64,000 nt of DNA, taken from an uncultured Acidobacteriota bacterium (GTDB lineage Bacteria; Acidobacteriota; Thermoanaerobaculia; Gp7-AA8). The stretch covers positions 1,056,001 to 1,120,000 of the forward strand of contig CAVUKB010000007.1 in NCBI GenBank assembly GCA_963741955.1, read 5' to 3'. The notes beneath the pieces were generated by a model. The model had not been told where the DNA came from and made no database searches. It was given only the letters and a program-made list of their open reading frames with translations. Below are positions 17,347 through 50,659 of the stretch, piece by piece. Both the position numbers and the translations under genes were made by a program. The stretch's first letter is position 1; every line of letters begins with the position of its first letter.

Positions 17347-17411
17347 AGGTTAATCGGTGTGCCTTCCAATGAGAAAGCGTATTTTCCACTCATCGTGGAT
17401 TGAGTAGTTTC
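17347..17411 (-). promoter_or_regulatory. Variant regulon promoter P1 (ice-binding gene), distal box disrupted by ISL3
   Basis: Minus strand GTGGAAAATACGC-T-TTCTCA-N17-TAACCT. The distal GTAGTTTC|TAC box is split at the IS junction. Confidence 0.6.
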
Positions 17412-18995
17412 GGTTCTCCTAACAGGTGTGTAGGTGCGGAATGATTGTCGGAGGCATGCAGGAACGGCGACGCGGCTGTTTTCGAGGAGCAAGTCGGTGT
17501 TCGCCGAAGCGTTCGGAAAGCGAAGTTGTGGAAACCGCGGAAAACGCCGCCACCCGGCCGCCGCGTTTTCCGCCGTTCCCACAACTTGCCCCGCCGTCGC
17601 GGAAGGATCTGAAGGAGCCCCGAAAGTCGCTGCTCGTGGAGAGGTGAAGATCGAAGCAGCGATAGCAGGTTGGAATCGGCGAACCGTGCTGCCCATTTCC
17701 CGTAGTCTGTAGTCGATGAAACCAAGACACGGGGAGGACAGGCACGGTGCGCCTGACGACATTGTTCCGGAAGTTGCTCAACATGGCAAACGTAACGGTT
17801 CGCGGGGTTCGGTTCGAAGCTCGGAGTCTCTATCTCGACGTGAGTCCAACGTGGAGACGTCCGCGGTGCGGAGGGTGCGGACGGGTTGCTCCCGAGCTTC
17901 ACGGAACGGTGATGAAGCATCGCGAATGGCGTCATCTCGGCCTCTGGGGATGCCGGGTGATGCTGCGGGCGGATCTGCCGCGGGTGCGTTGCCGCCGCTG
18001 CGGGGTGCGAACGGCCGCGGTTCCGTGGGCACGGCCTGGTTCGATGTTCACCCGCGCGTTCGAAGACGAGCTTGCCTGGTTTCTGCAGCGATCCAATCAA
18101 ACCGCGGTCTCGGCGTACTTCAAGGTCAGCTGGCTCACGGCCGGACGGATCGCCGCTCGAGTGGTTGCCGAAAAACGCGACCCGAACGCGCTCGAGAATC
18201 TGACCCGGATCGGCATCGACGAGATCTGCTGGGGGCGGCCGAAGAAGTTCATGACCGTGGTCACGAACCACGAGACCGGGCAGATGATCTGGGCGGCGAA
18301 GGGTAAAAGTGCAGAGGTTCTCGACGGGCTGTTCGATCTGCTCGGCCCCGAGCGCTGCGCGCGAATCCGTCTGGTGAGCATCGACATGAGCGCGGCCTTC
18401 GAGAAAGCTGTTCGCGACCGACTGCCGAACGCCGAGGTCGTTTTCGATCGGTTCCACGTGGTCCAACTCCTCGGGAATGCGATCGATCAGGTGAGGCGGG
18501 ACGAGATGCGAAAGGCCACCGGCGAGGAGCGCTCCGCTCTCAAATCCACTCGGTTCGTCCTCCTGAAGAACCCCTGGAACCTGCGTGATGCCGAGGAGGC
18601 GAAACTCTCGGAGCTCGCGCGGATGAATCACACCCTCTTTCGCAGTTACCTGGTCAAGGAATCCTTTCAGGACATCTATGACTCCTCGTCCGTCCGCCAA
18701 GCTGATCGACGGTTCAAGCGCTGGTATCAGTCCGCGGTTCATAGCCGCATTCAACCCCTCGTTCGCTTCGCGCGAACCGTCGCGGCGAAATGGCCTGGCA
18801 TCCGCCGTTACTTCGAGTATCGACTCACGAATGCAGTTGCTGAAGGCTGCAACAACAAGATCCGAATGCTCAGTCACCGCGCTTTCGGCTTTCACACCGC
18901 GGAAGCTCTGATCGCAATGGCGTTCCTCTGTACGTCAGCAATCGCATTCCATCCTCTCGGCCTATGAACTCTGCTACACACCTGTTAGGAGATCC
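17412..18995 (+). mobile_element. ISL3-family insertion sequence, copy 3
   Basis: Same IRs. TSD GTAGTTTC (17404-17411, 18996-19003). Confidence 0.97.
17747..18967 (+). CDS. ISL3-family transposase
   Basis: Protein identical to the other copies. Confidence 0.95.
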   Translation: MRLTTLFRKLLNMANVTVRGVRFEARSLYLDVSPTWRRPRCGGCGRVAPELHGTVMKHREWRHLGLWGCRVMLRADLPRVRCRRCGVRTAAVPWARPGSMFTRAFEDELAWFLQRSNQTAVSAYFKVSWLTAGRIAARVVAEKRDPNALENLTRIGIDEICWGRPKKFMTVVTNHETGQMIWAAKGKSAEVLDGLFDLLGPERCARIRLVSIDMSAAFEKAVRDRLPNAEVVFDRFHVVQLLGNAIDQVRRDEMRKATGEERSALKSTRFVLLKNPWNLRDAEEAKLSELARMNHTLFRSYLVKESFQDIYDSSSVRQADRRFKRWYQSAVHSRIQPLVRFARTVAAKWPGIRRYFEYRLTNAVAEGCNNKIRMLSHRAFGFHTAEALIAMAFLCTSAIAFHPLGL

Positions 18996-19308
18996 GTAGT
19001 TTCTACGCTGGGTAGCTGAACTCTTCGTCGGAGAGTCGGGAGTGATGCTCTGACGGGTGGCGGCAGCGACTGTCCCTGGTGGGAATCACGATGCGCACGG
19101 AAGCCGGGTCATCTGTCGAGGCGTCGCGAGCGAACGCCCGAGTCTGCTTGTTCGAATCCGATCGATGTCCGGCGTCGAGAGAGTCCTATATTGGAGGAGT
19201 CCTATATTCGAAAGGGAACAGCCGCCTTCGCAACACGCACATGCGTTCGCGCGCGCGGAGGGTGGTCTCGACGGATGGGCGCCCGGTGGTGTAGCGTGAG
19301 TTCCTCCG

Positions 19309-21411
19309 ATGACGAAGTCACCGACGGCATTATCAGAAGATGACAGCCGAAGTGCTGACGTTGCCGCCGTTCTGGCGGCGGCACGCGCAGTGCTGGAGAA
19401 CCGCGCGTTCGCTGACGCGGCGAAAGCGGTGTTCGGCGCGTGCAAGACGATCCTCGGCGCCGATGCGGGCCTGATCGCGGTGTGTGCGCCCCGGAAGCCG
19501 GCCTTCGACATCACATTCCTCGATCCCGGGAATCTCGATCTCGTCGCCGCAGCCGGCATGCCGGCGCAGCTTCAACGCCTGAGCGTTCGCGCCCGCAAAG
19601 GAAAAACCGTCTTCGCCAACCACCTGTCGAAGGAAAGCGGGACCACTCCCTCCGGTCGCCGTGCGCTCGAGAGCGCGATCTTTGCCCCGATCATCGTTGC
19701 CGGCGAGGTGGTGGGACTCCTCGGGCTGATCAACAAGGCGGGCGGCTTTTCCTCGGACGACTCCCGATTCGCCGAAGCCTTTGCGAGGTTGATCGCGCTG
19801 GCGATGCTCAACAGCCGCACGATCAACGGTCTCGAGAAGAACCGGGAGCGCGTCGAAGGGGAGTTCAGGACGCTCGTGGAGAGCCTGCCCGACATCGTCG
19901 CCCGGTTCGACCACGATCTGCGATACCTCTATGTCAGTTCCGCCGTCGAGCCCGTGACCGGCCGGCCGCCGCAGGAATTCGTGGGGAGAACGAACCGTGA
20001 GCTGGGAATGGCGGAGGAGCTGGTCGAGCCATGGGACGACGCTCTTCGAAGGGTCTTCGCGACGGGAGAAGCGGAGAAGTTCGAGTTCGCGTTCCCGGGC
20101 CTGAACGGAACGCGGTACTTCGATTGCCAGCTCGTTCCGGAGCGAGGCCCTGGCGGGACCATCCCGTCCGCGTTGAGCATCGCGCGCGACGTGACCGAGC
20201 GATGGCTCGCGCACGAGGCCGAACGGAAGGCACGGGACGTCGCCGACGCCCTGCGCGAAGCGACGATTGCGCTCACTCGCAGCTTCGACCGCGAGACCGT
20301 TCTGACCACACTGCTCGACCGCATGCGGGCAATGGTTCCGTTCGACCGCGGCAGTGTGATGCTCGTCGAGAATGCGTCGCGGATCTCCGTACGCGCGATT
20401 TTCGATGGCGACAGGGTCGTCCCTCTGACCGCCGACACGCGGTCGGAGTTCGATCCGATCGATCATCCGATCGTTCGCGACATTCTGACGACGGGCGCGC
20501 CGATTCTGATTCCGGATATTCGCGCGTATCCCGACTGGAGCCTCCCGGCAGATCTCTCCTCCGAGGCGAGCTGGATGGGGATTCCGCTGTTTGCGCGTGG
20601 GGACGTGGCGGGTTTGTTCTCGTTGTCCAAGTCCGAGGCGGCGTACTTCAACGAGCAGCACGTGAGACTCGCGGAGGCGATGTCGTCGCAGGCGTCGGTC
20701 GCCGTCGAGAACGCGGTTCTCTTCGAGCAGATGCAGTCGGCGACGGTGCGGATGAAGGCGCTGTCGCGTCGTCTCATCGACGTGCAGGAAACGGAACGGC
20801 GCCACATCGCGCGGGAGCTCCACGACGAGGCCGGACAGGCGCTCGTTTCGCTTCGCTATGGCCTCCGTCTGCTGGAAAAGGAGATCGGAGAGGGGAAAGT
20901 CGTCAGCGATCTCGTGGAAGAACTGGTGAGGCGCACCGATGAAGTCAACGCCAACCTGCACCGTCTGGCGGCAAACCTGCGGCCGCCGAGCCTCGATCAC
21001 CTGGGACTCGAGGCGGCCCTTCGCCAGTACTCGCGATCCGTTGGAGCCGAGTTCGGCCTCACTGTCCGTTTCAAGGCGAGCGGGTTCACCGGTGTGCGGC
21101 TGCCGACGACGGTCGAGACGGCTCTGTACCGCGTGGTCCAGGAGGCGATGGCCAACGTCGTGCGTCACGCCCGGGCGACGCGGGTCGACGTGCTGGTGGA
21201 GAATCACGATGGACATGTCATCGTGATCGTCGAGGACGACGGCGTCGGTTTCGATCCCGGCCAGGTCCGCCTCGGCGACCATTTCGGTCTTCTCGGTTTG
21301 AAGGAGCGGGCGGAGGCGCTCGGCGGAATTCTTCGCATCGAAAGCGCTGACGGGGCGGGAACGACGATTGTAGTGGAGGTGGCAGATGCCTATTCGAATC
21401 CTGATCGCTGA
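19309..21411 (+). CDS. Soluble GAF-PAS-GAF sensor histidine kinase (HisKA_3)
   Basis: ERRHIARELHDEAGQAL H-box, LYRVVQEAMANVVRHA, VEDDGVGF, FGLLGLKERA. No transmembrane segment evident. Confidence 0.92.
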   Translation: MTKSPTALSEDDSRSADVAAVLAAARAVLENRAFADAAKAVFGACKTILGADAGLIAVCAPRKPAFDITFLDPGNLDLVAAAGMPAQLQRLSVRARKGKTVFANHLSKESGTTPSGRRALESAIFAPIIVAGEVVGLLGLINKAGGFSSDDSRFAEAFARLIALAMLNSRTINGLEKNRERVEGEFRTLVESLPDIVARFDHDLRYLYVSSAVEPVTGRPPQEFVGRTNRELGMAEELVEPWDDALRRVFATGEAEKFEFAFPGLNGTRYFDCQLVPERGPGGTIPSALSIARDVTERWLAHEAERKARDVADALREATIALTRSFDRETVLTTLLDRMRAMVPFDRGSVMLVENASRISVRAIFDGDRVVPLTADTRSEFDPIDHPIVRDILTTGAPILIPDIRAYPDWSLPADLSSEASWMGIPLFARGDVAGLFSLSKSEAAYFNEQHVRLAEAMSSQASVAVENAVLFEQMQSATVRMKALSRRLIDVQETERRHIARELHDEAGQALVSLRYGLRLLEKEIGEGKVVSDLVEELVRRTDEVNANLHRLAANLRPPSLDHLGLEAALRQYSRSVGAEFGLTVRFKASGFTGVRLPTTVETALYRVVQEAMANVVRHARATRVDVLVENHDGHVIVIVEDDGVGFDPGQVRLGDHFGLLGLKERAEALGGILRIESADGAGTTIVVEVADAYSNPDR

Positions 21412-22024
21412 CGACCATCCCGTCGTCCGTTCCGGCCTTCGGGCGTTACTCAGCGACGATGTCGATCTCGAAGTGATCGCGGAGTCGGGAGACGGAGTCG
21501 AGACGTTACGCCTCGCCGAGACCCTGCGCCCCGACGTCGTCCTGCTCGACCTGACGATGCCTCCTGAGAACGGCATCGCGACCGCGAAGCGGCTGAAGGA
21601 GGCGAATCCGAAGATCATGGTCCTGATCCTCACCGTGCACGAGGACGAAACGCTGCTGCACGAATCGTTGCGCGCGGGCGCCTCCGGCTACGTGATCAAG
21701 CGTGCCGAGGCGAGCGAGATCATCCAGGCGATCCACGCGACGATGCGAGGCGACATCTACGTGCATCCTTCGATGACTCGGGCGTTGCTCGATCAACCGG
21801 TCACGACGGAGCACCGGCGCGGATCGTCCGTGGAAGAGCTGACCCCGCGCGAGCTCGACGTTCTGCGCCTTCTCGCCCGTGGAAATACGAACCGGCAGAT
21901 CGCCGACCTCCTCGACCTCTCGGTCCGCACGGTGGAGAACCACCGGGCCAACCTGATGGGAAAGCTCGGGATCTCGAGCCGGGTCGATCTCGTGAACTAC
22001 GCCGAGGGGCACAAGCTGCTCTAG
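21386..22024 (+). CDS. NarL/FixJ-family response regulator
   Basis: REC domain (IADDH, LLDLTMP, GYVIK) plus LuxR HTH (LTPRELDVLRLLARGNTNRQIA...TVENHRANLMGKL). Overlaps the kinase stop. Confidence 0.95.
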   Translation: MPIRILIADDHPVVRSGLRALLSDDVDLEVIAESGDGVETLRLAETLRPDVVLLDLTMPPENGIATAKRLKEANPKIMVLILTVHEDETLLHESLRAGASGYVIKRAEASEIIQAIHATMRGDIYVHPSMTRALLDQPVTTEHRRGSSVEELTPRELDVLRLLARGNTNRQIADLLDLSVRTVENHRANLMGKLGISSRVDLVNYAEGHKLL

Positions 22025-22185
22025 GCCAGCCCACTCACGGGATTTCGTCGCGAGGAGCGCGATTAGGGCCTGGAGGCGTCAGGGTGTGACTCCGCTTCCT
22101 CAACGTAATGTCGACCACGAAATCGCAGCCTTCCTCGCATCCGGGCCCGCGTACCGTCCTCCGACGAAATCTCGTGAATCCCTGG
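22025..22185. repeat. Degenerate MITE-like element with terminal inverted repeats
   Basis: TCACGGGATTTCGTCG (22035) vs CGACGAAATCTCGTGA (22162). Internal CCTCAACGTA..GCCTTC resembles the 36057 element reversed. Confidence 0.55.
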
Positions 22186-22192
22186 CTCGGGG

Positions 22193-22654
22193 TCAGGGCG
22201 CCATGTCGGAAAAGTCGAGGTAGAGCTGTTTGAGCCGCTGCGCGGCCGCGGGCTGTGCCTTTGCGAGCCCCGCGGTGACTTCGTCTCTCGCCGCGAGCAC
22301 ATGCTGAAGAGCGGCTTTCGCCTTCTCGTCACCCTGGATCTTCTGTGCCGTCCGAGCAACATCGTCGAAAAAGGTAGTGGCTTGTTCTCCGGCCGTTCCA
22401 TAGTCCTGGCGGTCGGCCTCCATCGCGAGACGTCCAAGGCGAAGCTGGATCCCCGTCAGATCGATGCGCTCCTGGAGTCGACTCATTCTCGCCTCGAGCT
22501 GTCCGGCGCGAGCCGATTCCGCCTCGACCGCGGCGGCCATCCGCTCGTCGCCCTGCCGGCGTTCGAGCCACGCACCCGCGAAAGCCCCCGCGACGACACC
22601 GAGGATCAGGCAGACCGCGCCGATGATGACATTGGTTCGTATTGCCTTCTGCAT
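22193..22654 (-). CDS. Hypothetical membrane-anchored helical protein
   Basis: N-terminal TM helix and coiled-coil-like remainder. GAGG SD. Co-oriented with neighbours. Confidence 0.7.
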   Translation of the reverse strand: MQKAIRTNVIIGAVCLILGVVAGAFAGAWLERRQGDERMAAAVEAESARAGQLEARMSRLQERIDLTGIQLRLGRLAMEADRQDYGTAGEQATTFFDDVARTAQKIQGDEKAKAALQHVLAARDEVTAGLAKAQPAAAQRLKQLYLDFSDMAP

Positions 22655-22712
22655 TCCGTCACCTCATTTCAGCGGTTCATGACAAAAACACGGCGCGACG
22701 GAGCGTCGATGA

Positions 22713-22991
22713 TCATCGTCTCCGGGAAAAGAGGTGGATGATTGCCACGAAAACGGCGGCACCGATGATCGACCACAGCACCGGGAACGCATGTCCGCCA
22801 ATGTTGACCATGAACGGTTCGGGGAGCTTGAGCCACCGGGCAAACCAGGGCCCGAGAAGGGCCCCGATGAATCCGATGGCCGTCGTGACGATCAATCCGC
22901 CGCGAGCGCTGCCCGCGATGGCCTTCCCGATGGCGCCGCAAACCGCCGCGATCAGGATGAGAAGAATGATTGCCGTGAGCGACATCGTCAT
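22713..22991 (-). CDS. GlsB/YeaQ/YmgE (transglycosylase-associated) stress membrane protein
   Basis: Three hydrophobic helices, IGFIGALLG and WSIIGAAVFV pattern. Confidence 0.8.
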   Translation of the reverse strand: MTMSLTAIILLILIAAVCGAIGKAIAGSARGGLIVTTAIGFIGALLGPWFARWLKLPEPFMVNIGGHAFPVLWSIIGAAVFVAIIHLFSRRR

Positions 22992-23041
22992 GATTTCCTT
23001 TCCAGGATGAAGAAATCCGAGTGCATCGAGATCTCAGCGGA

Positions 23042-23899
23042 TCAGTCGTCGATGCTCGGCGTTCCGAACGGGAGACGCGGGAGGTACGTGCGTAGCGCCT
23101 CCATGACCTTCTCGACTGCGGTGTTGGAACCCGAGTCTTTGTGAATGTCCCGGAACCGATATCTGTCGCCCTTCACGACCTGAAAGTTGATCTGGTAACA
23201 GAAGTTCCCGGAGGACCGCGCCTCGCACGTGAACCAAACCTTCTGAAGGCCGGAGGTCTGGAACGTGAAGTTCTCGTTCGCGTTGCCCTTGTCCTCCCAG
23301 GTCAGCGTGTCACCCCGCAGGGCGAGGCTGCCCTCGCGGTTCTTTCTGAAGAATCTCCACAGACCCGTCTTCTTGACGAGCACGAGGTCGTTGAAGACCA
23401 TCTCGGATGGAGCAACAGCCAGCGCTGGAGGGGCTCCGGCATGGGTCGACATCAAGGCTGCGATCGTCGACTCCTGAGCACCATTCTGTTTGAGGTAGAG
23501 AAGGTCGTTGACCGAGAGGTTGTACCTCTGGCCCGACTGCCGGACCTGCTCCGCGATGTTGGAATCGGAGACTCCGGAGTTGATCAGGCGAACCAGCTCG
23601 ACGAGGCGGACATCATCAGGTCGCTGGGGCGTGGACTCCGTCGAGAGCGCGGGCATCCGGACCCAGATTGCGCTGATGACCGTCTCAGGCACGCCTGCGT
23701 CGCGCAACGTGACGATGTCTCTCGCCGTCATGGCGATGGTATTTGCCGGGCTATTGACTATGGCGATGATCCCGTTGACCGGTGCGCCGGCATGCTGAGC
23801 TGCCAGAATGGAGTTGACGGTCAACTCCTCCGCGCCAGCAATTGAGGCGAATGCCAGCAGAGCCGTGCCGACGAGAGCTCCAACTATCTTGTGTTTCAT
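23042..23899 (-). CDS. Hypothetical exported protein
   Basis: Signal peptide MKHKIVGALVGTALLAFASIAGA and repeated L..L..AGV.E.VI.A helical motifs. AAGGCGG SD. Confidence 0.7.
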   Translation of the reverse strand: MKHKIVGALVGTALLAFASIAGAEELTVNSILAAQHAGAPVNGIIAIVNSPANTIAMTARDIVTLRDAGVPETVISAIWVRMPALSTESTPQRPDDVRLVELVRLINSGVSDSNIAEQVRQSGQRYNLSVNDLLYLKQNGAQESTIAALMSTHAGAPPALAVAPSEMVFNDLVLVKKTGLWRFFRKNREGSLALRGDTLTWEDKGNANENFTFQTSGLQKVWFTCEARSSGNFCYQINFQVVKGDRYRFRDIHKDSGSNTAVEKVMEALRTYLPRLPFGTPSIDD

Positions 23900-23925
23900 C
23901 GAATACCGCCTTTCCTTATGACGAC

Positions 23926-24001
23926 ATTCTGAGTCTTTGGCCACGCTGCGAGAAGCGCACTTTCTACCCGGGCGTGCTTCGTCGGGGCGGGTAGAAACTA
24001 C
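23926..24001 (-). promoter_or_regulatory. Regulon promoter P2
   Basis: GTAGTTTCTAC, +34 GTAGAAAGTGCGC-TTCTCG-N17-CAGAAT. Confidence 0.75.
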
Positions 24002-24137
24002 CGCCGCCTCGTCCAGGCTACTCGCCGTTTTCGACACGACCGGAAACACTCATGGGGCCGTCCGCTTGGTCGTGGGAGACTCGTGGATGTTCGAACCTCG
24101 CCGAGCATCGGCGCGAGACCTGGATGCCGGCGACCGC

Positions 24138-24212
24138 GTAGTTGCTACCTAGTGCGGGCTCCGCTCTACGGTAGAAAGTGCGCTTCCGTCGGGAGGGCCA
24201 TGAGATTAGGCT
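24138..24212 (+). promoter_or_regulatory. Regulon promoter P3 (glucan synthase)
   Basis: GTAGTTGCTAC, +33 GTAGAAAGTGCGC-TTCCGT-N17-TAGGCT. Confidence 0.75.
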
Positions 24213-24562
24213 CGACTCGTGGCTCTGAAGGCGCAGTTCTCGCCAGCACGGGCAGCCGTCGCGGATGAAGGATTCCCCATCGTGGCTGCATCGCGTCGAG
24301 CACCGCGAATGTGAGGGCCTTATGAGACACCACACTGGAACTGTCGCTCTCCATTCGCCGGGTTGATACGGGACACACGATGCTCGTGGTTGATCTCGCC
24401 CTCCTGGTGATCGCGACGGCCGGATCAGTGATCGGGATCGATGCCTTCGAGTCCCGTTCTGGAGCCGGCGAGGCGAGGCACGATTTCTTTGGCCACGAGA
24501 GGACTTTGCCGTTGAGACGGTGAGCCCGAATAGTCCGGGTCAGGCCACGCGGGAGGTGATCT

Positions 24563-27500
24563 CTGTTTGGACGGCGAAGCCGCGAAAGAACCTTGCCTCT
24601 CGGGGGCGAGCTCCTGAGCCCCGAGGGTCTCGAGGAACGGGCGAAGACGCTCGCGGCAACTTTCATTCTGGCGCCCGCATCACGCCGGGTCCGGCACGAC
24701 GTTCTGCCACGGCTGGAAGAAAATATCCGCGCCCTGAGGGCGGCGTACCGCTCGCTTGCCGACGACGTCCACCTGGGCGTCGCGATACCTCCTGCTGCGG
24801 AGTGGCTTCTCGACAACTTTCACCTCATCGAAGCGGAGACGGTCGCGGTCCGGCACGATCTCCCCATCCGGTACTATCGGATGCTACCGAAGCTCGCGGC
24901 GCGCGAGCTCGCGGGCCTCGCGCGCATTCACGCGATGGCACTCGAGCTGATCCGGCACGGCGACGGACGGCTGGACCTCGAACGGCTCACGCGGTTCGTC
25001 ACCGCCTTTCAGACCGTGGCGCCGCTGACCATGGGCGAGCTGTGGGCCTGGCCGAGCATGCTCAAGCTGGCGCTGATCGAGAACCTGAGACTTCTGACGG
25101 ACGGATTCGTCGAAGGCCGTGCGGCACGCCTGGCGGCCGACGATGCTCTCTCCCGGATGGAAAAGGATGATCTTCCCGTTTCCCTTCCCGATCCGCTCCC
25201 GGATGCATTCGTCGCGCGCCTGCGGCAGCGGATGCGTGAATACGATCCCCGAGTATCTCCTCTCGTCGCGGCAGTGGACGTGGCACTTGCCGCGCGAGGA
25301 ACGACGCCCGAAGACGCGGTTCGCCGCGAGAACCAGCGCCACGCCACGGACCAGGTCTCCACCAGCAATGTGGTGACGAGCCTGAGATCGTGTGCGACGC
25401 TCGACTGGAGCCGCTTCGTGGAGCTGGTCAGCCCGGTCGAGGAGATCCTGAGGCGGGACCCGGCCGGCGTCTATCCGCGAATGGACTTTCAGAGCCGCGA
25501 TCGTTACCGGCACGCCGTGGAAGAACTCGCCGGCCGGACTGGCGAGGCGCAGGTGCGCGTCGCAGTACGGGCCGTCGAAGTCGCCCGGCTGGCGGCGGAG
25601 CAGAAGGGAATCGACGAGAAGGCGTCACACGTCGGCTACTATCTGACCGGCCCGGGCCGGCGCGGCTTCGAGGCCGACGTCGCATACCGCCCGACCGTCG
25701 GCGCACGACTCCGCCGCTTTGCTTTCGCTCATACGACTGCGGGTTACTTCGGCGCCATCGCTCTGGTGACCGGCCTTTGCGTGCTCGCCGCGTACGCGTA
25801 CGGGCGCGCATCGGGATTGGCGACGGCTGCGGCACTCCTCGCACTGATTCCAGCGAGCGAGCTCGCCGTACTCATCGTCCAGCGCATCGTGGCCGCACTC
25901 GTGCCGCCCCGCCGGCTTCCGCGTCTCGATTTCAGCGAAGGCATACCCGATTCCGCGCGGACCATAGTTGTGGTGCCTGTGCTTCTCGGCAGCGTCGAAG
26001 AGGTCGAACAGATCCTCTCGCACCTCGAGGTGCAGGCGCTCGGAAACATCGATCCACGGATTCACTTCGGGATACTCAGTGATCTAAAGGACGCGGCGAC
26101 GCTTTCGGTTTCCGGCGACGACGAAATCCTGGCTGCGGCGGTCAGCGGTATCGAGGCGCTCAATCGACGGCACGTCCCCAACGGAAACGACCGCTTCTAT
26201 CTGTTCCACCGCGATCGCGAATGGAACGCGAAACAGAACGTCTTCATGGGACGAGAGCGCAAGCGGGGAAAGCTCGAGTTGCTCAACCGGCTGTTGCGCT
26301 CCTCTTCCGACACCGGATTTTCCGTGAGGGTCGGCGACCTTTCGATTCTTCCGTCGGTGCGCTACGTCATCACGCTGGACGCCGATACGCGACTCCCGAG
26401 GGAGGCCGCAAGAGTCCTGATCGGAATCGCCGCGCACCCTCTCAACCGGCCCGTAGTCGACCCGGTCCTCCGAAGGGTCACGGAAGGCTATGGGATCCTC
26501 CAGCCGCGCGTGAGCGTCAACCTTGCGAGCGCCGGCAGATCGCTTTTCGCGCGTGTCTACTCGGGCCACACCGGCGTCGATCCATATACGACCGCCGTTT
26601 CCGACACCTACCAGGATCTGTTCGGAGAAGGGAGCTTCACCGGCAAGGGACTGTATGACGTCGACGCTTTTCATGAGACGGTCGACTGGCGCGTTCCCGA
26701 CGACGCGCTGCTGTCGCACGATCTGTTCGAGGGGCTCCATGCGCGTACGGCGCTCGTTTCCGACGTCGAGGTCGTGGACGATTACCCGGCCAACGTCCTC
26801 GCGCATGCGCGAAGACAACACCGGTGGGTGCGAGGCGACTGGCAGATTCTCGCCTGGCTGTTCCGGCTGGTCCCGACGGCAGGCGGTCTCGCGAAGAATC
26901 GCCTTCCGTTCATCAGCCAGTGGAAAATCATCGACAATCTTCGCCGCAGTCTCGTGGCGCCTTCGCTCCTCGCGTTCTTCGCGGCCGCATGGACGTTTCT
27001 ACCGGGGCGTCCGATCGTATGGACCCTCGGAGGGCTCACAGTCGTCGCGTTTCCGTTCATTGCCTCTGTTTTCCAGCTCCTCGAGCGGCGTCCCGCGCAC
27101 GAACCGGTTCGCGTCCATCTCCGTGGCGTCGTCGAGGATCTCACTACCGCGTTCGCACAGGCGCTTCTGTCGGTGGTCTTCCTCGCATTCCGTGCATGGA
27201 ACGAAGTGAATGCGATCGTCCTGACGCTCGTCCGGCTCGCCGTCACGCATCGCCATCTCCTCGAGTGGGAGACGGCCGCCTCGCAGGGCGCACGGACGGC
27301 GGGTCTTCTTCGAGAGGGAATCCGATCGTTTTTCATGGAGATGGTCACGAGCCCGATCACAGCCGTCGCGCTGCTCGCCGTCGCGAGCGTCGTTCGTCCC
27401 GGCGCGCTTTCGGTGGCGTTGCCATTTATCGTCTTGTGGGCGGTGGCGCCCGCGTGCGCGTATTACCTGAGCCGGTCGGTCGTGCCACGCGGCCGGGAGT

Positions 27501-32767: not shown

Positions 32768-32826
32768 GCGAACGCGGGAGACATTCCTACTGTGCAGAGC
32801 GGGATCACGGCGAGGTCGTCGGCACT

Positions 32827-34239: not shown

Positions 34240-34271
34240 CTCAGCGGCCTCCTGCGGTCTCTGGCAACGAC

Positions 34272-36243: not shown

Positions 36244-36244
36244 A

Positions 36245-36319
36245 GTAGTTTCTACCTGCTTCGCGCTCTCCTTCCGGGTAGTAAGTGCGCTTCCCGGTCC
36301 ACGGGTCGAGCGATAGGTT
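36245..36319 (+). promoter_or_regulatory. Regulon promoter P5 (ackA-xfp-ATPase operon)
   Basis: GTAGTTTCTAC, +33 GTAGTAAGTGCGC-TTCCCG-N17-TAGGTT. Confidence 0.75.
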
Positions 36320-36328
36320 GAGGTCACT

Positions 36329-39919: not shown

Positions 39920-39982
39920 CACTCTGAAGCTGAGTCCGTGCGCCAGATCGTCACGACCCGAAACGAATCAAAGGAGCGAGCG

Positions 39983-40345: not shown

Positions 40346-40450
40346 CGGCTTCGATCACTCGCGACACGAAGGTAACGCCGCGGCGCCACCGACGTGATCG
40401 TCGCGCATCTCACCGACCGCGATATCGCGAAGACGGCACGGAGGTCCATC

Positions 40451-43075: not shown

Positions 43076-43297
43076 ACCGGGGCCTCGGCCGTCTCGCGGA
43101 CCGTCTACCGCGCGGCGCGAGAGAGATCGCCGAAACCCAGGAGTGAGGATCCGAGGGGTCAGGTGCTGCGTGAAGACAATGCGAAATGCTCTTTCCTATC
43201 CCGCGCCCGGACGACAATCGGGTGAGCGCCCTCGTGCCTCGCGGCACTCGAATTGTCGGGCACATCCCATTCCCCGAGCCTATGATTGGAGAACGCC

Positions 43298-43457
43298 AGG
43301 AGTCTGCACGGTAGGAACGTCCGTAGCGAGAAAGCGGAGCAGCGAGGCCAAATTCGTTCGGATTCGAGGTGCGTAGCGGTGGCTACTCGCCGAAAATCCG
43401 GGCGGATTTGGCCTCGCTGATTCCGCTTTCGCAGCAGGACAGGTTTCTACCGCGCAG
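43298..43457. repeat. MITE-like element (family 1), inverted copy of 50057-50217
   Basis: GGAGTCTGCACGGTAGGAAC...GTTTCTACCGCGCAG. Aligns with the reverse complement of 50057-50217. Confidence 0.8.
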
Positions 43458-43550
43458 GCACACTCCCAGCCGCGATATGCTACATTCGGTCCGACCGGGC
43501 CGACGGTCGTGGATCGGCGCACGCAGCGTCGGATGAATAGGGAGATAGAT

Positions 43551-44126
43551 ATGAGTGACATTCTGCAGGCGGTGATGAAGCAGCTCGGCAGCGACGGAAT
43601 CGAACAGATCGCGGGTTCGGTCGGCGCAGATTCAACAACGACGAAGTCGGCGATCGGAACGGCTGTGCCGCTCCTCGTGGCGGCGCTCGCGAAAAACGCG
43701 TCGAGTCCCGCGGGAGCGCAGGCGCTCCACGGCGCCCTGGCGCGGGACCACGACGGCGGGATCCTCGAAAACCTGGCGGGGTTCCTCGGCAATCCGCAGT
43801 CGATGAACGGCGCGGGCATTCTCGAGCACGTCCTGGGAGGAAAGGTCGGTGCGGTTCAGCAGGGGATCTCTCAGGGCTCGGGGCTCGACTCCGGGTCGGT
43901 CGGCAAACTCCTGATGATCCTGGCCCCGATCGTAATGGGGCTGCTCGGCCGTCAGCAGCGGGTGGGCGGACTCGACGCCGGGGCGCTCGCCGGGATGCTT
44001 GGAGGCCAGAGTCGGCAGGCATCCGGCGCGCTTGGCGCGCTCAACTCGCTCCTCGACGCCGACGGCGACGGGAGCGCCCTGGATGACATCGCCGGGATGG
44101 CGAAAGGGTTTTTCGGAAACAAGTAG
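43551..44126 (+). CDS. DUF937 family protein
   Basis: AVPLLVAALAKNAS..GAQAL, GILEHVLG, LAPIVMGLLG, LLDADGDGSALDD. Confidence 0.85.
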   Translation: MSDILQAVMKQLGSDGIEQIAGSVGADSTTTKSAIGTAVPLLVAALAKNASSPAGAQALHGALARDHDGGILENLAGFLGNPQSMNGAGILEHVLGGKVGAVQQGISQGSGLDSGSVGKLLMILAPIVMGLLGRQQRVGGLDAGALAGMLGGQSRQASGALGALNSLLDADGDGSALDDIAGMAKGFFGNK

Positions 44127-44161
44127 TGCACAACGCGAAGTCTGGAGTCAGGAGAACTCAA

Positions 44162-44596
44162 ATGTCGATGTTCGGAAAATCATTCGACGAAAAGGTCCGC
44201 GATGCCACGAGTCAGCTTTCGTCGAACTTCCCTGGTTCGAAGATCGTTGCCGACGTCACCGGGGACGAAGTCGTCACGCTCAGCGGAGTGGTCCCGAATC
44301 TCGAGACGAAGGGACGTGTGATGGCCGCGTTCAACGATCTCGTCAAGACGAAAAACACGATCAACACGATCCGGATCTCCGAGGCGACGAAATCGACGCC
44401 CGCGGGGATGGATCCCGTTGCGGCGGCGCACGAGCCGCGCATTCACGAGGTCGTGAAGGGCGACACGCTCAGCGCAATCGCAAAGAAGTACTACGGCAAC
44501 GCGGGCAAGTACACGAAGATCTTCGAGGCGAATCGCGACATCCTCGACGACCCTGACCGCATCAAGGTCGGTCAGAAGCTGAAGATCCCGGATTAG
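44162..44596 (+). CDS. BON-LysM protein (YgaU/Kbp-like)
   Basis: VTLSGVV BON domain. HEVVKGDTLSAIAKKYYGN...IFEANR...PDRIKVGQKLKIP LysM domain. Confidence 0.9.
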   Translation: MSMFGKSFDEKVRDATSQLSSNFPGSKIVADVTGDEVVTLSGVVPNLETKGRVMAAFNDLVKTKNTINTIRISEATKSTPAGMDPVAAAHEPRIHEVVKGDTLSAIAKKYYGNAGKYTKIFEANRDILDDPDRIKVGQKLKIPD

Positions 44597-45121
44597 CGCC
44601 AATGGCCCGACCTCAAGCAAAATCCGCGTGTCAGCCGGGAGTCTGCGCGAGCTTGCTGAGCAGCGAAGGATCCTCTCTCCGAGGGGCGCCAAGGCTCTCG
44701 CCGTGGCCGCGCAGATCGCCTTCAGAACGGAACGAGACGACACCTGCGGAAGATGCGCAGTAACTCCGCACATCGGCTCTGTGAACACCCATCGTGCCAC
44801 TCGAGTTCGGGCCATTGGGATTAGCGCGGCGTTGCCGCCCTGGACGATCGCGGACGGTCCCGGCCAGCGCCGTCGCAGCGGCGGCGCTGGCGATTGTTCT
44901 GTTGTCGGCATCGGACGAAGCAGGCCATCAATAAGAGCGAGATTGCACCTGCTTCGCGCGCAACAGCAATGGCGAGCTCGAGAGGATCCAGTGGAGCAGT
45001 GAAGCCGGATTCGTCCGAATGCGAGGCGCCCGGCGGTGATTACTCGCCGAGCATCCGTAGATCATCTCGAAGAACGGCATAGCGATCCGCACGCCGGTTG
45101 CTGCCATCAGCGTCATCTGCA

Positions 45122-45325
45122 CTAGTCGTCGATGACGAATGTCACCATCATGTGAATCCGATACTCCGTGATGGCGCCTTTCGTCACTTCCACCTTCTGT
45201 TCCTTGATCCAGGCGCTGCGCACGTTTCTCAGCGTCTTGTTCGCCCTGTCGAGTCCGTGTTCGATGGCGTCCTGGAAGCTTTTCTTCGAACTTGCGCTGA
45301 TCTCGGTGACTTTTGCGATCGACAT
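45122..45325 (-). CDS. Dodecin family protein
   Basis: SIAKVTEISASS.KSFQDAI, KTLRNVRSAWIKEQ, YRIHMMVTF. Confidence 0.9.
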   Translation of the reverse strand: MSIAKVTEISASSKKSFQDAIEHGLDRANKTLRNVRSAWIKEQKVEVTKGAITEYRIHMMVTFVIDD

Positions 45326-45671
45326 CATATTCTCCTTGCGTCTTCGCGTTTCAGGTTGCGGTATCCGAACGGTGGCGACGGCAGTGTCCTCGGGGCAACG
45401 AGAGAGGCTTGCCGGAGCTCAGCCGAATCGGGGACGGCATACTGGCAGATGCCGTCTACGGTTCGTGAAAGCTGATATGGGTTGAGTGGTGGGATGCGAC
45501 GGCAGATTGGGGAGATGCCAGTGGGGGCTCGTTCGACGATGTCATGATTACCTCGCCGGATCGGTTCGTCGAGTGATGACCGTAGGAATGCGGTCGCGCG
45601 GGATGGCGCGGACCGTGGAGCTTCGTGTGACTGAGGGTGTGATGATTCATCGCATTCCATCGGCACGGTTC

Positions 45672-45747
45672 AATCTATTCTTCTGTCGTCGCTGCGTGAA
45701 GCGCACTATCTACCCGGCAGACGCGGAACAGAACGGGTAGAAACTAC
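45672..45747 (-). promoter_or_regulatory. Regulon promoter P6 (dodecin)
   Basis: GTAGTTTCTAC, +34 GTAGATAGTGCGC-TTCACG-N17-TAGATT. Confidence 0.75.
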
Positions 45748-45781: not shown

Positions 45782-48532
45782 TCAAGTGAGCTCGGCGTCT
45801 GTGTGTGGTGCACGTGGTACCGGTGGAACCTCGTCCAGCAGCTCCCGCACTCTGCGGATCAATGTCTCGAGGCTGAGCGGTTTACCGAGAAACGCGCGGC
45901 CGGCGCCCTCCATGTCGGTCATGGCCGTGGATGCTTCACTGTAACCGGAGACGAAGAGTACCTTCGTGCCCGGTCGTGTCCGCTCGACGACTGTCGCTAC
46001 TGTCGGACCCGACATTCCCGGCATTACGACGTCAGTGACCATGATCTCGATCGCGCCTGAATGCGCGTCGGCCAGTCTCACAGCCTCGGTCCCATCCCGC
46101 GCAACGATTACGGAGTATCCGCTTGCCGCGAGCGCTTCACGCATCGACTCACGAAGCGAGGCTTCGTCTTCGACGAGCAGCACCGTCTCGGTGCCACGTG
46201 GCAGCGGCCCCACCTTCCCTTCTGTCGTCTGCGTGGGGCTATGGTCGACCCGAGGAAGGTAAATCCTGAACGTCGTTCCGAGACCGAGCTCACTGTAGAC
46301 CCAGATGGCCCCGCCACTCTGCTTGACGATGCCGTAGACGGTGGAGAGACCCAGACCCGTTCCCTTACCCTTCTCTTTTGTGGTGTAGAAGGGCTCGAAG
46401 ATCCGGGCCTGGGTCTCCTCGTCCATTCCCGCGCCATCGTCCGACACCGTGAGGACGATCTGCGGGCCCGGCTGGGTGTGCGGGCGATTCGCGACGTATT
46501 CCGATTCCGGATCGGCGTTGCGAGTCTCGATCGTGATGCAGCCGCCGACCGGCATGGCGTCACGGGCATTGAACACGAGATTCATGAGGATCTGCTCGAT
46601 CTGGGCCGGATCGGCTCTCACGCTGCCGAGATCGGGCGCGAGGTGGGTGGTGAACGCGATGTCCTCGCGAATGGTCCTTCGGAGCATCGTCTCCATCTCG
46701 GTGACGATCATGTTGAGATCGAGGACTTTAGGCTCGAGAGGGAGCTTGCGGCCGATGGCCATGAACTGACGCGTCAGAGTCGAAGCACGCCAGGCTGCTT
46801 TGAGGATCTGGTCCAATCCGGCCTTGCCGGGCGCGCCATCGGGCAGCTGCTTCCGAACCAGCTCGCCGTAGTTCACGATGACCCCGAGAATGTTGTTGAA
46901 GTCGTGTGCCACACCGCCCGCGAGCAGACCAATCGCTTCCATCTTCTGGGCGTGGAACAACTGCTGAGCGAGGGCGGTCTCCTCGGTGATGTCGCGCTTG
47001 ACTGCCACGTAGTTGACGATCCGCCCCGCGGCGTCGCGCACTGGCGATATGGTCCCTTCCTCCTCGAAGAGTGTGCCGTCCTTTCGTTTGTTGATCATGC
47101 GGCCGGTCCAGATCTGGCCTCCGAGTAATGTGCTCCACATCGTGTGATAGAACTCGTCATCCTGTTTGCCACTCTTCAGGAATCGCGGATTCCGGCCGAT
47201 CGTTTCCTCCCGGGTGTATCCGGTCGCGGTCTCGAACGCGGGATTGACGTAGAGAATCTCGCCGGTGGAGTCGGTGATCACGATCGCTTCGCCCGCCTGC
47301 TCGACCGCGGTCGCGAGCAGCGCGTGGGCCTTCTCCGACCGTGTGCGCTCGGTGATGTCACGGACGTTGCACTGAATCACCGGGTCTCCGTTCACCAGGT
47401 ACACGTTGCTGATGAACTCCACATCGTTCCGGCGCCCGTCGAACGACTCCAGAGCCAGGTCCTCGTACCGGACATATCCCTTCCTCTTCAACTCCGCGAA
47501 GTTCGCCTCGTTCGCGAGCACGTCCTTGAGAAACCCGAGATCCCAGAGCTTCTTCTGGAGGAAGTCGTCACGCGTGAAACCCATCAACTGGACCAGGTAC
47601 GGATTCACGTCCACGATCATCCCGGACTCGTAGTCGACGATCAGAACGCCGTCCCTTGCCGCTTCGAAGAGGCGGCGATAGCGGGTCTCCGAGGTGACGA
47701 GCGCATCCTCGGCTTCCCGGCGTTCGGAGATGTCGCGGACCGCCGCCACGGCGTAGTCCCGATCGAGATGGACCAGCTTGAGGCTGACCTCGACGGGGAA
47801 TGTCGATCCGTCCTTCCGGCGACGGCTCGTCTCGAACTGCGCGACACCGGTTTGCGCGAGTTCCGCCATCACCGTATCGGAGTCGCCGTCGCCGACGTCG
47901 ACGTCGCCGCGGTTCAACGACATGAGCTCCTCGCGGCTGTAGCCGAGGGCCTTGCATGCCTGCTCATTGAAATCGAGGAATCGGCCGGACTCCGGATCGA
48001 GCACTTCGATCGCGTCACTCGAGTGCTCGACCAGATTGCGAAACAGGTTCAGCGAATCTTCGGTGCGCTTGCGCTCGGTGATGTCCATGTAGGTACCGAG
48101 AAGACCGATGATCTCTCCGTCGGAACTGCGTAGCGGCGTCTTGCTCGTAAGAAGAGTGATGGTCTCCCCGGTGGGAGTCGTCTGCGGCTCTTCAATGAGA
48201 TTCCTGGCCCGGCCGCTCTCGATGACCTCGCGGTCGTCGGCGCGATACGCGTCGGCTTGATCGCGAAATGCCAACTGGTAGTCGGTCTTGCCGATGACGT
48301 CGACCGGATCGGCGAATCCTGCATCTTTCGCGAACGCTGCGTTGCAGCCAAGGTAAACGAGATCCTTGTCTTTCCAGAAGACCCGCGCGGGGATCGCGTC
48401 GAGGATCCCGGCGATGACCTGTTGCGAAGCCCGCAGCGCCTCCTCCGATCCCCGCAGCTCGAGTTGGCTGGGGCGGGCCTCGGTTGCGAGGACGTTCGCC
48501 GTCTGCTGATTGGTGTGCGGATTGTCAGTCAT
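45782..48532 (-). CDS. Multi-PAS hybrid sensor histidine kinase/response regulator
   Basis: Four PAS/PAC repeats (DITERK), AGGVAHDFNNIL, NLVFNARDAM, GTGLGLSTVYGIV and C-terminal REC (LLVEDE, TDVVMP). Confidence 0.93.
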   Translation of the reverse strand: MTDNPHTNQQTANVLATEARPSQLELRGSEEALRASQQVIAGILDAIPARVFWKDKDLVYLGCNAAFAKDAGFADPVDVIGKTDYQLAFRDQADAYRADDREVIESGRARNLIEEPQTTPTGETITLLTSKTPLRSSDGEIIGLLGTYMDITERKRTEDSLNLFRNLVEHSSDAIEVLDPESGRFLDFNEQACKALGYSREELMSLNRGDVDVGDGDSDTVMAELAQTGVAQFETSRRRKDGSTFPVEVSLKLVHLDRDYAVAAVRDISERREAEDALVTSETRYRRLFEAARDGVLIVDYESGMIVDVNPYLVQLMGFTRDDFLQKKLWDLGFLKDVLANEANFAELKRKGYVRYEDLALESFDGRRNDVEFISNVYLVNGDPVIQCNVRDITERTRSEKAHALLATAVEQAGEAIVITDSTGEILYVNPAFETATGYTREETIGRNPRFLKSGKQDDEFYHTMWSTLLGGQIWTGRMINKRKDGTLFEEEGTISPVRDAAGRIVNYVAVKRDITEETALAQQLFHAQKMEAIGLLAGGVAHDFNNILGVIVNYGELVRKQLPDGAPGKAGLDQILKAAWRASTLTRQFMAIGRKLPLEPKVLDLNMIVTEMETMLRRTIREDIAFTTHLAPDLGSVRADPAQIEQILMNLVFNARDAMPVGGCITIETRNADPESEYVANRPHTQPGPQIVLTVSDDGAGMDEETQARIFEPFYTTKEKGKGTGLGLSTVYGIVKQSGGAIWVYSELGLGTTFRIYLPRVDHSPTQTTEGKVGPLPRGTETVLLVEDEASLRESMREALAASGYSVIVARDGTEAVRLADAHSGAIEIMVTDVVMPGMSGPTVATVVERTRPGTKVLFVSGYSEASTAMTDMEGAGRAFLGKPLSLETLIRRVRELLDEVPPVPRAPHTDAELT

Positions 48533-48560: not shown

Positions 48561-49583
48561 CTAGAAGTCCCCGAGCTGCACGAGCTGCTTCCCCTGATTC
48601 GTTCCGTGCAGCATTCCGATGAAGGCCTGCGGCGCCGCTTCGATGCCCTGGGCCACCGCCTCCCGGTATCTGAGCTTTCCTTGTTTCAGCCAGGTGTCGA
48701 GCTGCTTACGCCCTTCGGAGAATCGATCGGCGAAGTCCGACACGAGGAAGCCCTCTACCTTCGCCGTCCTGGCGAGGAGATGCCCGAGCCAGCGCGGCCC
48801 CGTCTCGGGAGCCTCCAGGTTGTACTCCGAGATCTGCCCGCAGACGGAGATTCGGGCTTTCACATTGATCCGTCGCATGACCGCGTCACTCAGCGCCCCT
48901 CCGACATTGTCGAAGTAGACGTCGATGCCTTCGGGGCAGAGCTCGGCGAGTCTGGCGTCGAAATCCGGATCGGACCCGTAGTTGGATACCGCGTCGAAGC
49001 CGAGCTCGTCGCGTAACCACGTGAGCTCGGCGTCGGCGTTCGCCAGCCCCACCACACGGCATCCATTGATCCTCGCAATCTGGCCGGCGAGCATTCCGAC
49101 CGCACCGGCGGCTCCGGAGACCACCACGGTCTCGCCACGTTGCGGGCGACAGATCTCGAGCAGGCCGAAGTACGCCGTGAGCCCCGGCAAACCCAGCGCA
49201 CCGAGCGCCAACGAGATCGGGGAGAGGCCCGGTTCGAGCTTTCTCAGCGCATGTGCGGGGACGATGGCGTACTCCTGCCACCCCAGCATTCCTTCGACCG
49301 CGTCACCAGCCCGGAACGCCGGATCGCCGGACTCCACGACGAAGGCGGCGGCTCCGCCCGGCATGACTTCACCAAGGCGCACCGACCCGCCGTCGGATCC
49401 ATTCTGGTTCATCTGCACGCGGATGTAGGGATCGAGCGACAGGTAGATCGACCGAACCAGAACCTCGCCGGCGGCCGGCGATGACAACGGCGCGTAGACC
49501 AGCCGGAAATCGGACAACGACGGGTATCCCACCGGCCGTGACGCGAGCGTGATCTGTCTGTTTATCGGAGCCAGTGAATTCAT
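48561..49583 (-). CDS. NADP-dependent oxidoreductase (CurA/prostaglandin reductase-like MDR)
   Basis: LASRPVG, YLSLDPY, GLPGLTAYFGL, VSGAAGAVG, GIDVYFDNVGG, CGQISEYN, NQGKQLV. Confidence 0.92.
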   Translation of the reverse strand: MNSLAPINRQITLASRPVGYPSLSDFRLVYAPLSSPAAGEVLVRSIYLSLDPYIRVQMNQNGSDGGSVRLGEVMPGGAAAFVVESGDPAFRAGDAVEGMLGWQEYAIVPAHALRKLEPGLSPISLALGALGLPGLTAYFGLLEICRPQRGETVVVSGAAGAVGMLAGQIARINGCRVVGLANADAELTWLRDELGFDAVSNYGSDPDFDARLAELCPEGIDVYFDNVGGALSDAVMRRINVKARISVCGQISEYNLEAPETGPRWLGHLLARTAKVEGFLVSDFADRFSEGRKQLDTWLKQGKLRYREAVAQGIEAAPQAFIGMLHGTNQGKQLVQLGDF

Positions 49584-49631: not shown

Positions 49632-49850
49632 CTACTTCTTCCCGCGGGCAAAGAGGAGAGCGGCGCCGACCACGATGGCTCCTGCGCCGGCCCAGACCGG
49701 AATGTCGACCGTATCTTTGTTCTGGACCGACATCTCGATCGGCCCGATCCTCGCCTCGTGGGTCGTCCTCGTGTACGTGATCCCGCCATACACGAGCCCG
49801 ACGATACCGGCAGCGATCAGAAATATCGCGACGATCTTGAATGCGTTCAC
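49632..49850 (-). CDS. Small two-TM membrane protein
   Basis: LIAAGIVGLVYGGITYT...IPVWAGAGAIVVGAALL. AAGGAG SD. Confidence 0.75.
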   Translation of the reverse strand: MNAFKIVAIFLIAAGIVGLVYGGITYTRTTHEARIGPIEMSVQNKDTVDIPVWAGAGAIVVGAALLFARGKK

Positions 49851-50056: not shown

Positions 50057-50217
50057 GGAGTCTGCGCGGTAGAAACTGTCCTACTGCGAAAGCGGATCAG
50101 CGGTCAAAATCCGTCCGGATTTTCGGCGAGTAGCCACCGCTACGCACCTCAAATCCGAACGAATTTGGCCTCGCTGCTTTGCTTTCTTGCTACGGACGTT
50201 TCTACCGCGCAGACTCC
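50057..50217. repeat. MITE-like element (family 1) with perfect 20-bp terminal inverted repeats
   Basis: GGAGTCTGCGCGGTAGAAAC ... GTTTCTACCGCGCAGACTCC. Confidence 0.85.
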
Positions 50218-50366
50218 TAGCGGACGCGCCGTCCGGAGACGAGTTGAAAGATCAGAATGATGACCGCCACCACGAGCAGGAGGTGGATGAACCCACCCAT
50301 GGTGTAGGAGGTGACGAGGCCGAGCAGCCATAACACCACCAGAATGACGAGAATCGTCCACAGCAT
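50217..50366 (-). CDS. lmo0937-family small membrane protein (49 aa, not in the ORF track)
   Basis: MLWTILVILVVLWLLGLVTSYTMGGFIHLLLVVAVIILIFQLVSGRRVR. GGAGGT SD. Confidence 0.85.
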   Translation of the reverse strand: MLWTILVILVVLWLLGLVTSYTMGGFIHLLLVVAVIILIFQLVSGRRVR

Positions 50367-50584
50367 GACCTACCTCCGGTTTCGTTGTTTGCACGTCGTG
50401 GGCAACGACGATGCCGCGCACGACGTACTCGCCGTCGCATCTGACCGAGCGGAGAGAGACGGGTGGGATCACTGTCACGACGATCTGCGATGAGCTCGGG
50501 CGGATGCCGTGAGATCTGGTCTCGGAGTCGGGGACAATGAACGTTCGTTCTCTCATTCGATCCCGTCTCTACTCCCACGTCACA

Positions 50585-50659
50585 AGGTTAGTCCCCGCGT
50601 ACCGCGGCCAGAAGCGCACTTACTACCCGAGAGAGAAGGGATGCGTGAGTAGAAACTAC
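50585..50659 (-). promoter_or_regulatory. Regulon promoter P7
   Basis: GTAGTTTCTAC, +33 GTAGTAAGTGCGC-TTCTGG-N17-TAACCT. Confidence 0.75.

Follow-up and report, generated by a model that had tools for sequence, protein, structure and literature searches.

A two-box promoter regulon of Thermoanaerobaculia, likely read by a local NarL/FixJ-type response regulator

Which protein reads a promoter layout that recurs six times in one stretch of a bacterial genome, and what response does it command? The question was raised by 64 kb of DNA (64,000 nucleotides, nt; hereafter the window) from an uncultured Acidobacteriota bacterium of the class Thermoanaerobaculia, in which a two-component system (19309-22024) lies beside promoters composed of a distal palindrome and a proximal box. 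Our analysis suggests that these promoters likely belong to an activator-dependent sigma70 regulon, which would be read by the local response regulator and whose output may be general stress and envelope protection.

As proposed in a preliminary description of this DNA, the strict two-box layout was present at all six promoters (Table 1) with box spacings of 34, 33, 34, 33, 34 and 33 nt, and each proximal box is followed by TTCnnn, 17 nt and a -10-like hexamer. All six are intergenic and face the next gene, which was also borne out. The hexamers were found at the places described, but two of them, CAGAAT (3.0 bits) and TCGAAT (1.3 bits), scored poorly. The palindrome GTAG-N3-CTAC is centred near -76/-77 and the second box near -43; the left half of the latter is canonical (GTAG), its right half is altered (mostly GTGC), and downstream of it follow a weakened -35 region (TTCNCG), 17 nt and TAGRTT. 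Three of the six promoters have long leaders of 374, 337 and 212 nt. The window contained seven distal palindromes (0.41 expected from shuffles) and six exact proximal boxes, or eight at up to two mismatches (2.24 expected). Within the 5.44-Mb genome (63% GC) the strict two-box pattern occurred seven times, compared with an expectation of about 3e-5. The seventh intact site (G000:C7:538493-538536, minus strand) lies outside the window, 517 kb away, and precedes the genes of a 259-amino-acid (aa) protein with a C-terminal sorting-like signal and of a sortase; the regulon is therefore wider than the 17-51 kb in which the sites had first been seen. A matrix scan of the genome disclosed no full site beyond the seven, and the composite score of 50 at the seventh site compares with 25 at the runner-up, which is promoter 5 read backwards. 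Being limited to seven strict copies, all facing genes, the motif is far from common and unoriented, the behaviour that the preliminary description had named as speaking against a regulon. A generic sigma70 scan yielded nothing in 43-51 kb because the -35 regions are weak; neither an Rfam family at gathering score nor a tRNA was detected in the window. From the sequence, the two-box sites are almost certainly real promoters.

Species genomes were also scanned with the strict pattern. At least 122 stretches matched, 120 loci were stored, and the site counts given below (137, 134 and 261) were drawn from the listed loci. Among the matches listed, 112 of the 120 stored loci were labelled Acidobacteriota or a subgroup, mostly Thermoanaerobaculia. 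The stored loci comprised at least 137 distinct strict sites, and 134 after L052, L053, L103 and L137 had been dropped as chance matches before the matrices were built; these four bore archaeal, Bacteroides or unnamed labels, and the three inspected lacked the TT of the -35 region. A 2.4-kb contig labelled Phycisphaerales (L077) contained a regulator of 77% identity and two sites, through mis-binning or transfer. Outside the search pattern, the -35 region was conserved as T (97%), T (97%), C (81%), C (58%), C (76%) and G (75%) in the 137 listed sites. TAnnnT at a spacer of 16-18 nt, likewise not searched for, was present in 125 of the 134 listed strict sites versus a background of 0.45%. For comparison, tRNA promoters in this genome have the form TTGAC(A/G/C)...TA(G/C)AAT; the pair TTnnnn-TAnnnT was found in 15 of 53 upstream regions, 13 times with TTGAC(A/G/C). 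A weakened -35 region with a housekeeping -10 region is usual for activator-dependent sigma70 promoters. Since the two-box sites combine just these elements, they would be promoters of this kind, and the class II activation geometry assumed earlier is supported by the sigma70-like -35/-10 elements predicted beside the proximal box near -43 in the comparative sites. When a distal box above 8 bits was sought at 12-61 nt, in loci fetched by a 32-35-nt pattern, the spacing was 32-35 nt in 239 of 246 cases, 34 nt in 192, 24-25 nt in four and elsewhere in three, while 18 proximal boxes had no distal box. A third site between the boxes was considered and rejected, the spacer consensus not being GTAG-like. 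Viral contigs gave no match to the two-box pattern, and a look for RNA runs covering 19010-28000 yielded none.

The kinase gene overlaps that of a regulator with PF00072 and PF00196 domains (REC and GerE/LuxR helix-turn-helix), the sole DNA-binding protein found in 17-51 kb. Two features of a NarL/FixJ-family two-component regulon were observed, namely a REC-helix-turn-helix regulator beside its cognate HisKA_3 kinase, and a dyad whose distance to a sigma70 promoter is constant; binding of the phosphorylated regulator to the site is predicted from co-occurrence and helix similarity. In a set of 61 relatives, only G000, G037 and G060 had the strict motif, and a regulator of at least 70% identity was confined to the same three; all others had at most 45%. 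Among 301 genomes of the class, 22 exhibited the strict motif, all of them within the 28 that carry a full-length regulator at 66% identity or more. The six remaining full-length carriers (G281, G106, G080, G073, G114 and G295) have relaxed sites at 33-34 nt. Three relaxed sites were also found in G201, where a partial regulator of 81% identity adjoins a kinase of 66%. In nine genomes whose homologues did not exceed the range of 53-64%, no full site was detected among proximal-box matches at up to one mismatch. In a sample of the phylum, two of 300 other genomes harbored the strict motif, both from a single family that does not belong to the class, and each had a homologue of 56-57% identity; such a homologue accompanies full sites in G385, G450 and G328, likewise outside the class. 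G042 counts as one motif-negative row in these tallies. The regulator orthologues formed one clade (33 rows, Shimodaira-Hasegawa approximate likelihood ratio test 99, quick tree). The scan suggested earlier, of this genome and of those with the regulator, disclosed a rare, gene-oriented motif that tracks the regulator orthologue.

Two further observations are independent of this linkage of regulator and sites. Ten loci with homologues of 55-64% identity, whose helix is similar, were inspected (one of the ten genomes also carries the orthologue); seven contain a palindrome scoring 12 bits or more, and none has the proximal box. By comparison, such a palindrome was present in 4.3% of 300 random windows, a background drawn from a different genome, and at one of the 12 further GerE loci in the present genome. 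Moreover, the recognition helix is identical in eight of nine residues to RTVEVHRAN of FixJ (PDB 1x3u), and the distal box shares its leading eight bases with the FixJ class consensus obtained by systematic evolution of ligands by exponential enrichment, GTAGTTTCCC, which starts GTAGTTTC (excerpt of PMC4999443). Motif distribution, clade and helix match, all of them comparative evidence, make it very probable that the boxes are read by the local response regulator, and so argue for the attribution to the 19309-22024 pair made in the preliminary description. Regulators with 55-61% identity (L181, L182, L178 and L185) have this palindrome nearby, accompanied by other proximal sequences, and may point to sister regulons. 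Autoregulation through a two-box promoter facing the kinase was rejected: no such proximal box lay upstream of the kinases examined, many of which have a divergent two-box promoter there.

Under the mechanism that we propose, the kinase would phosphorylate the regulator, and one phosphorylated dimer would bind the distal palindrome near -77 and help a second dimer onto the weaker proximal box near -43. Both dimers would lie on the same face of the helix, 34 nt corresponding to 3.2 turns and the 24-25-nt form being one turn shorter. The proximal dimer would then contact RNA polymerase at the -35 region, recruit the sigma70 polymerase and activate transcription of genes for general stress and envelope protection, to which this genome would have added a phosphoketolase-acetate kinase-H+-ATPase arm. 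The assumed binding and cooperativity of the two dimers, like the predicted transcription starts, follow the analogy of the phased boxes of DevR.

To survey the targets, homologues encoded within 3.5 kb on the same strand were counted downstream of 261 sites defined by matrix, 198 of which are followed by 1.5 kb or more of sequence. BON proteins followed 43 sites, the 72-aa membrane protein 33, the 285-aa protein and GlsB 24 each, CsbD and the oxidoreductase 23 each, NdvB-like proteins 21, sortases 16, a likely sortase substrate and dodecin 15 each, ice-binding-like proteins 11, ECF (extracytoplasmic function) sigma factors seven, AckA four, glucose-6-phosphate dehydrogenase three and Xfp two. 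BON/OsmY, CsbD, YflT, YtxH, YciF, GlsB and lmo0937 proteins are typical of SigB, RpoS and EcfG regulons. Our system resembles those regulons in its target families, including also YmgE and LysM proteins, but its promoters have the look of activator-dependent sigma70 promoters, whereas those regulons are read by alternative sigma factors. No homologue of universal stress proteins was found after the 261 sites with two queries from this genome, whose own genes for such proteins lie outside the cluster; alpha-crystallin and nitroreductase were not queried. The metabolic arm was 78-88% identical in nucleotide sequence to L063/L064 and otherwise rare. With Xfp and AckA after so few sites, phosphoketolase-acetate production and proton export, which the preliminary description had included in the programme, are by this comparison a rare add-on and not the regulon core. 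Of the further targets joined in that description, cyclic glucan, dodecin and ice-binding-like proteins recur elsewhere, but the ice-binding promoter is broken by an insertion sequence here. At G000:C7:538493-538536 and in L001 (6986-8400), a class D/GN-like sortase and its probable substrate stand under the same promoter, an arrangement recurring after 15-16 of the 261 sites. The host phylum of this sortase pair is Gram-negative.

Judging by these families, we lean slightly towards a general stress output rather than a hypoxia-specific one. The alternative that survives best retains the regulator and assumes a hypoxia or dormancy regulon like that of DosR or the Burkholderia lxa locus, the kinase sensing O2, NO or redox state via a GAF-B cofactor and the acetate-ATP and proton-pump genes, with that of glucose-6-phosphate dehydrogenase among the targets here, serving anoxic survival. 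We regard it as rather unlikely. Like DosS/DosT-DosR of Mycobacterium tuberculosis, the system has a NarL-family regulator, a GAF-bearing HisKA_3 kinase and two phased boxes, the proximal one near -43; at the DevR-dependent tgs1 promoter the boxes lie at -42.5 and -63.5, and phased primary and secondary boxes are required (excerpt of PMC3177182). GAF-B weakly matches GAF-A of DosT/DosS (E 1e-4 to 5e-3) and contains two conserved histidines, His451 (18 of 18 homologues) and His386 (16 of 18), which are candidates for a ligand. However, the position aligned to the DosS haem ligand His149 (excerpt of PMC4082495; His147 in DosT) is Leu416, by an alignment whose chain numbering was inferred from a 5-residue tag, and is histidine in only two of 18 homologues. 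The phospho-acceptor His505 was invariant in 19 of 19 aligned homologues, and the only histidine of the PAS domain (202) was kept in two of 16. Some orthologous kinases lack GAF-A, PAS, or PAS and GAF-B, and therefore no input domain is universal. When an AlphaFold model of the kinase (predicted local distance difference test 73, predicted template modelling score 0.40) was searched with Foldseek, all matches were of a generic PAS/GAF/kinase kind, and none hinted at a ligand. The signal is probably cytoplasmic. Furthermore, DosR has the helix KTVKNYVSR in place of RTVENHRAN, an 18-bp Dev box with GGGACT half-sites instead of GTAG-N3-CTAC, and four promoter classes versus one rigid architecture here. 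The term DosR-like used earlier is therefore inappropriate, considering the missing haem-ligand histidine, the FixJ-like helix and site, and the absence of universal stress protein targets.

Other known systems were compared as well. The regulator scored 87.3 bits versus the NCBIfam FixJ cut-off of 255 and is thus no equivalog of FixJ of Sinorhizobium meliloti, despite the similar helix and site. Unlike FixL with its HisKA-type haem-PAS, the kinase is of the HisKA_3 type with GAF-PAS-GAF, and PAS is absent in some orthologues; the targets are direct stress genes, not fixK/nifA. NreB is defined by a four-Cys Fe-S PAS domain. Although many homologues bear the automatic label NreB-NreC, the kinase has three cysteines, and the conserved two (Cys45 and Cys273) reside in different domains. 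FixJ covers two regions at fixK (excerpt of PMC4999443). In the lxa locus of Burkholderia cenocepacia, genes of stress and metabolism are likewise clustered and marked by a motif, and they include those of a cation ATPase and of 'phospholipid-binding' proteins, but the motif is TGA-N6-TCA of the Fnr/Anr type and six universal stress proteins are encoded (excerpt of PMC3721108). Only one FNR-like box (one mismatch) was detected in 17.3-51 kb, inside the ATPase gene. The 'phospholipid-binding' proteins of lxa are presumably of the BON type. Judged by its parts, the system works like a DevR/FixJ tandem-site activator regulon, yet it lacks what defines DosR, FixL-FixJ and NreBC.

Several points weigh against our interpretation. 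Because regulator and sites share a gene cluster, their co-occurrence is in part co-inheritance, and related genomes do not count as independent cases. The 66% cut-off was set post hoc, the nearest excluded homologue having 64%, and ten candidates per genome were scored in the search for the regulator in 301 genomes. G460 (97% complete), from the family of the carriers outside the class, contains a single full relaxed site but neither a regulator exceeding 37% identity nor a match to the kinase. The spacing census is biased by the pattern with which its loci were fetched. As to the output, the BON and CsbD queries, top stress markers elsewhere, had no match in this genome, no apt paper listing the stress families together was found, and two 'phospholipid-binding' proteins also occur in the hypoxia-induced lxa locus (excerpt of PMC3721108).

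It is improbable that the regulator reads only the distal palindrome and that a second factor or an ECF sigma factor reads the proximal box. In favour of this reading, the right half of the proximal box has not decayed at random but is GTGC in 201 of 261 sites, the palindromes of related regulators are accompanied by different proximal sequences, and an ECF sigma gene follows seven sites; on the other hand, the left half is GTAG in 247 of 261, the -35/-10 elements fit the housekeeping pattern of the tRNA promoters, and in divergent pairs one palindrome is shared by two proximal boxes (G308). The ECF sigma factor was rejected as reader, since homologues exist in 60 of 61 relatives versus the motif in three. 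That the boxes are a dispersed repeat (like repetitive extragenic palindromes, with a GTAG start) or a copied cassette devoid of regulatory meaning is very improbable. In its favour, the genome has intergenic families of repeats (74, 133 and 20 copies), one of which adjoins promoter 4, and inter-box spacers of unrelated promoters within one locus were 41.5% identical versus 28.9% after shuffling (240 pairs, 12 at 70% or more). Against it, there are only seven copies per genome, all facing genes; -35 and -10 elements are conserved, as is, at many sites, the distance of 70-74 nt between the proximal box and a start codon; the six window spacers were no more alike than shuffles (31% versus 28%), and the distribution tracks one regulator clade. 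The promoters may nevertheless have spread by copying.

A seventh variant with 25-nt spacing had been described before the ice-binding gene. A remnant with this spacing does exist, but it is split by an ISL3-family element, its palindrome is displaced and its proximal box, at 9.2 bits, is weak in a genome where 171 positions score above 8 bits. The target duplication consists of 8 bp of the palindrome, GTAGTTTC, and the distal box, which now scores 2.1 bits, reached 19.6 bits once the element had been excised in silico. The element has a DDE_Tnp_ISL3 transposase (PF01610, 243 bits), terminal inverted repeats and the 8-bp duplication, as is characteristic of the family. Eighteen full-length copies with at least 99.8% identity were found in the genome, 13 of them with a target duplication of 8 bp or more; by this comparison the copies are a recent burst. 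Three lie in the window (7081-8664, 11271-12854 and 17412-18995), the first two among genes of PKD-domain surface proteins. Elsewhere, the 24-25-nt form occurred in five of 261 sites, all with the palindrome reversed as at the ice-binding gene. Probably, this site was originally such a minor-class promoter, and its crippling is probably recent. Short-spaced promoters in L061, L078, L148 and L034 precede a conserved gene of approximately 420-495 aa.

Some features of the transcription units deserve mention. The sole possible start of ackA is TTG 36329, about 3 nt past the predicted transcription start (window 36314-36331), and the same was seen in L063, which suggests that its mRNA is nearly leaderless. 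The 64-codon open reading frame (ORF) in the dodecin leader (45456-45650) is His/Ser/Pro-rich and without NCBIfam match; the region is 88% conserved in L064. DUF937 and LysM genes (43509-44596), located downstream of the H+-ATPase gene past a repeat, may be co-transcribed from promoter 4. The glucose-6-phosphate dehydrogenase gene (32807-34254) has a second copy, of 88% identity, at G000:C7:8565-10008. Hairpin repeats at 36050-36246, 43294-43457, 44599-44820 and 50057-50221 exist in 74, 133, 20 and 135 copies, the second and fourth being one family; the first ends at the distal box of promoter 4. Tandem arrays at 14199-15560 (units of about 253 bp) and 53193-54857 (about 300 bp) have relatives across the genome.

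Table 1. Positions of the two-component system, the promoters and their predicted targets in the window
Feature	Position	Strand	Remarks
Ice-binding-like (PF11999) protein with Ig repeats	15579-17216	-	probable start ATG 17216; ice binding predicted only
Promoter remnant, 25-nt spacing	17347-17411	-	weak proximal box 17377-17389; -10-like hexamer 17347-17352; 8 bp of palindrome (target duplication) 17404-17411
ISL3-family element, 1584 bp	17412-18995	+	transposase 17747-18967; inserted in distal palindrome
Intact distal palindrome	18996-19006		displaced by the element; 313 bp upstream of kinase start
GAF-PAS-GAF-HisKA_3-HATPase kinase	19309-21411	+	no transmembrane segment seen in translation
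NarL/FixJ (LuxR-type helix-turn-helix) response regulator	21386-22024	+	recognition helix RTVENHRAN; putative reader of the boxes
Promoter 1	23926-24001	-	distal palindrome 23991-24001; proximal box 23955-23967; -35 23949-23954; -10 23926-23931
Targets of promoter 1			285-aa protein with N-terminal signal-like stretch 23042-23899; GlsB/YeaQ/YmgE 22713-22991; 153-aa protein 22193-22654
Promoter 2	24138-24212	+	divergent from promoter 1; faces 2724-aa NdvB/ChvB-like cyclic beta-1,2-glucan synthase 24593-32767; leader of ~374 nt
Promoter 3	35674-35749	-	186-aa membrane-anchored protein 35027-35587; YflT-domain protein 34272-34970; glucose-6-phosphate dehydrogenase 32827-34275
Promoter 4	36245-36319	+	ackA 36329-37540; xfp 37559-39919; SpoIIAA-like 39938-40345; plasma-membrane H+-ATPase 40394-43075 (TIGR01647 above cut-off)
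Promoter 5	45672-45747	-	faces dodecin 45122-45328; leader of ~337 nt with 64-codon ORF
Promoter 6	50585-50659	-	lmo0937-family membrane protein 50217-50366; 72-aa membrane protein 49632-49850; NADPH oxidoreductase 48561-49583; perhaps PAS hybrid kinase 45782-48532

In the open-access literature (subscription journals and supplements lay outside the scope) no description of this regulon was found, and the exact motif appeared only in unrelated primer or microRNA papers. The mechanism is of a textbook kind; the regulon itself is without a found description. With 192 of 246 sites at 34 nt and a few one turn shorter, the promoters form a natural test set for activation of sigma70 polymerase by two FixJ-like dimers. 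One switch would link proteins of unknown function, sortase operons, the cyclic-glucan synthase and ice-binding-like proteins, and the data give a testable map of regulator, sites and targets for a largely uncultured group of Acidobacteriota in which no described regulon was found. More tentatively, these bacteria may conduct their general stress response via a portable two-component system and not via an alternative sigma factor; the regulon would grow by copying a module of about 100 bp (boxes, -35, -10 and ribosome site), and the fixed GTGC half-site would be a clade-specific activator-polymerase code, keeping it separate from related regulators that recognise this palindrome too.

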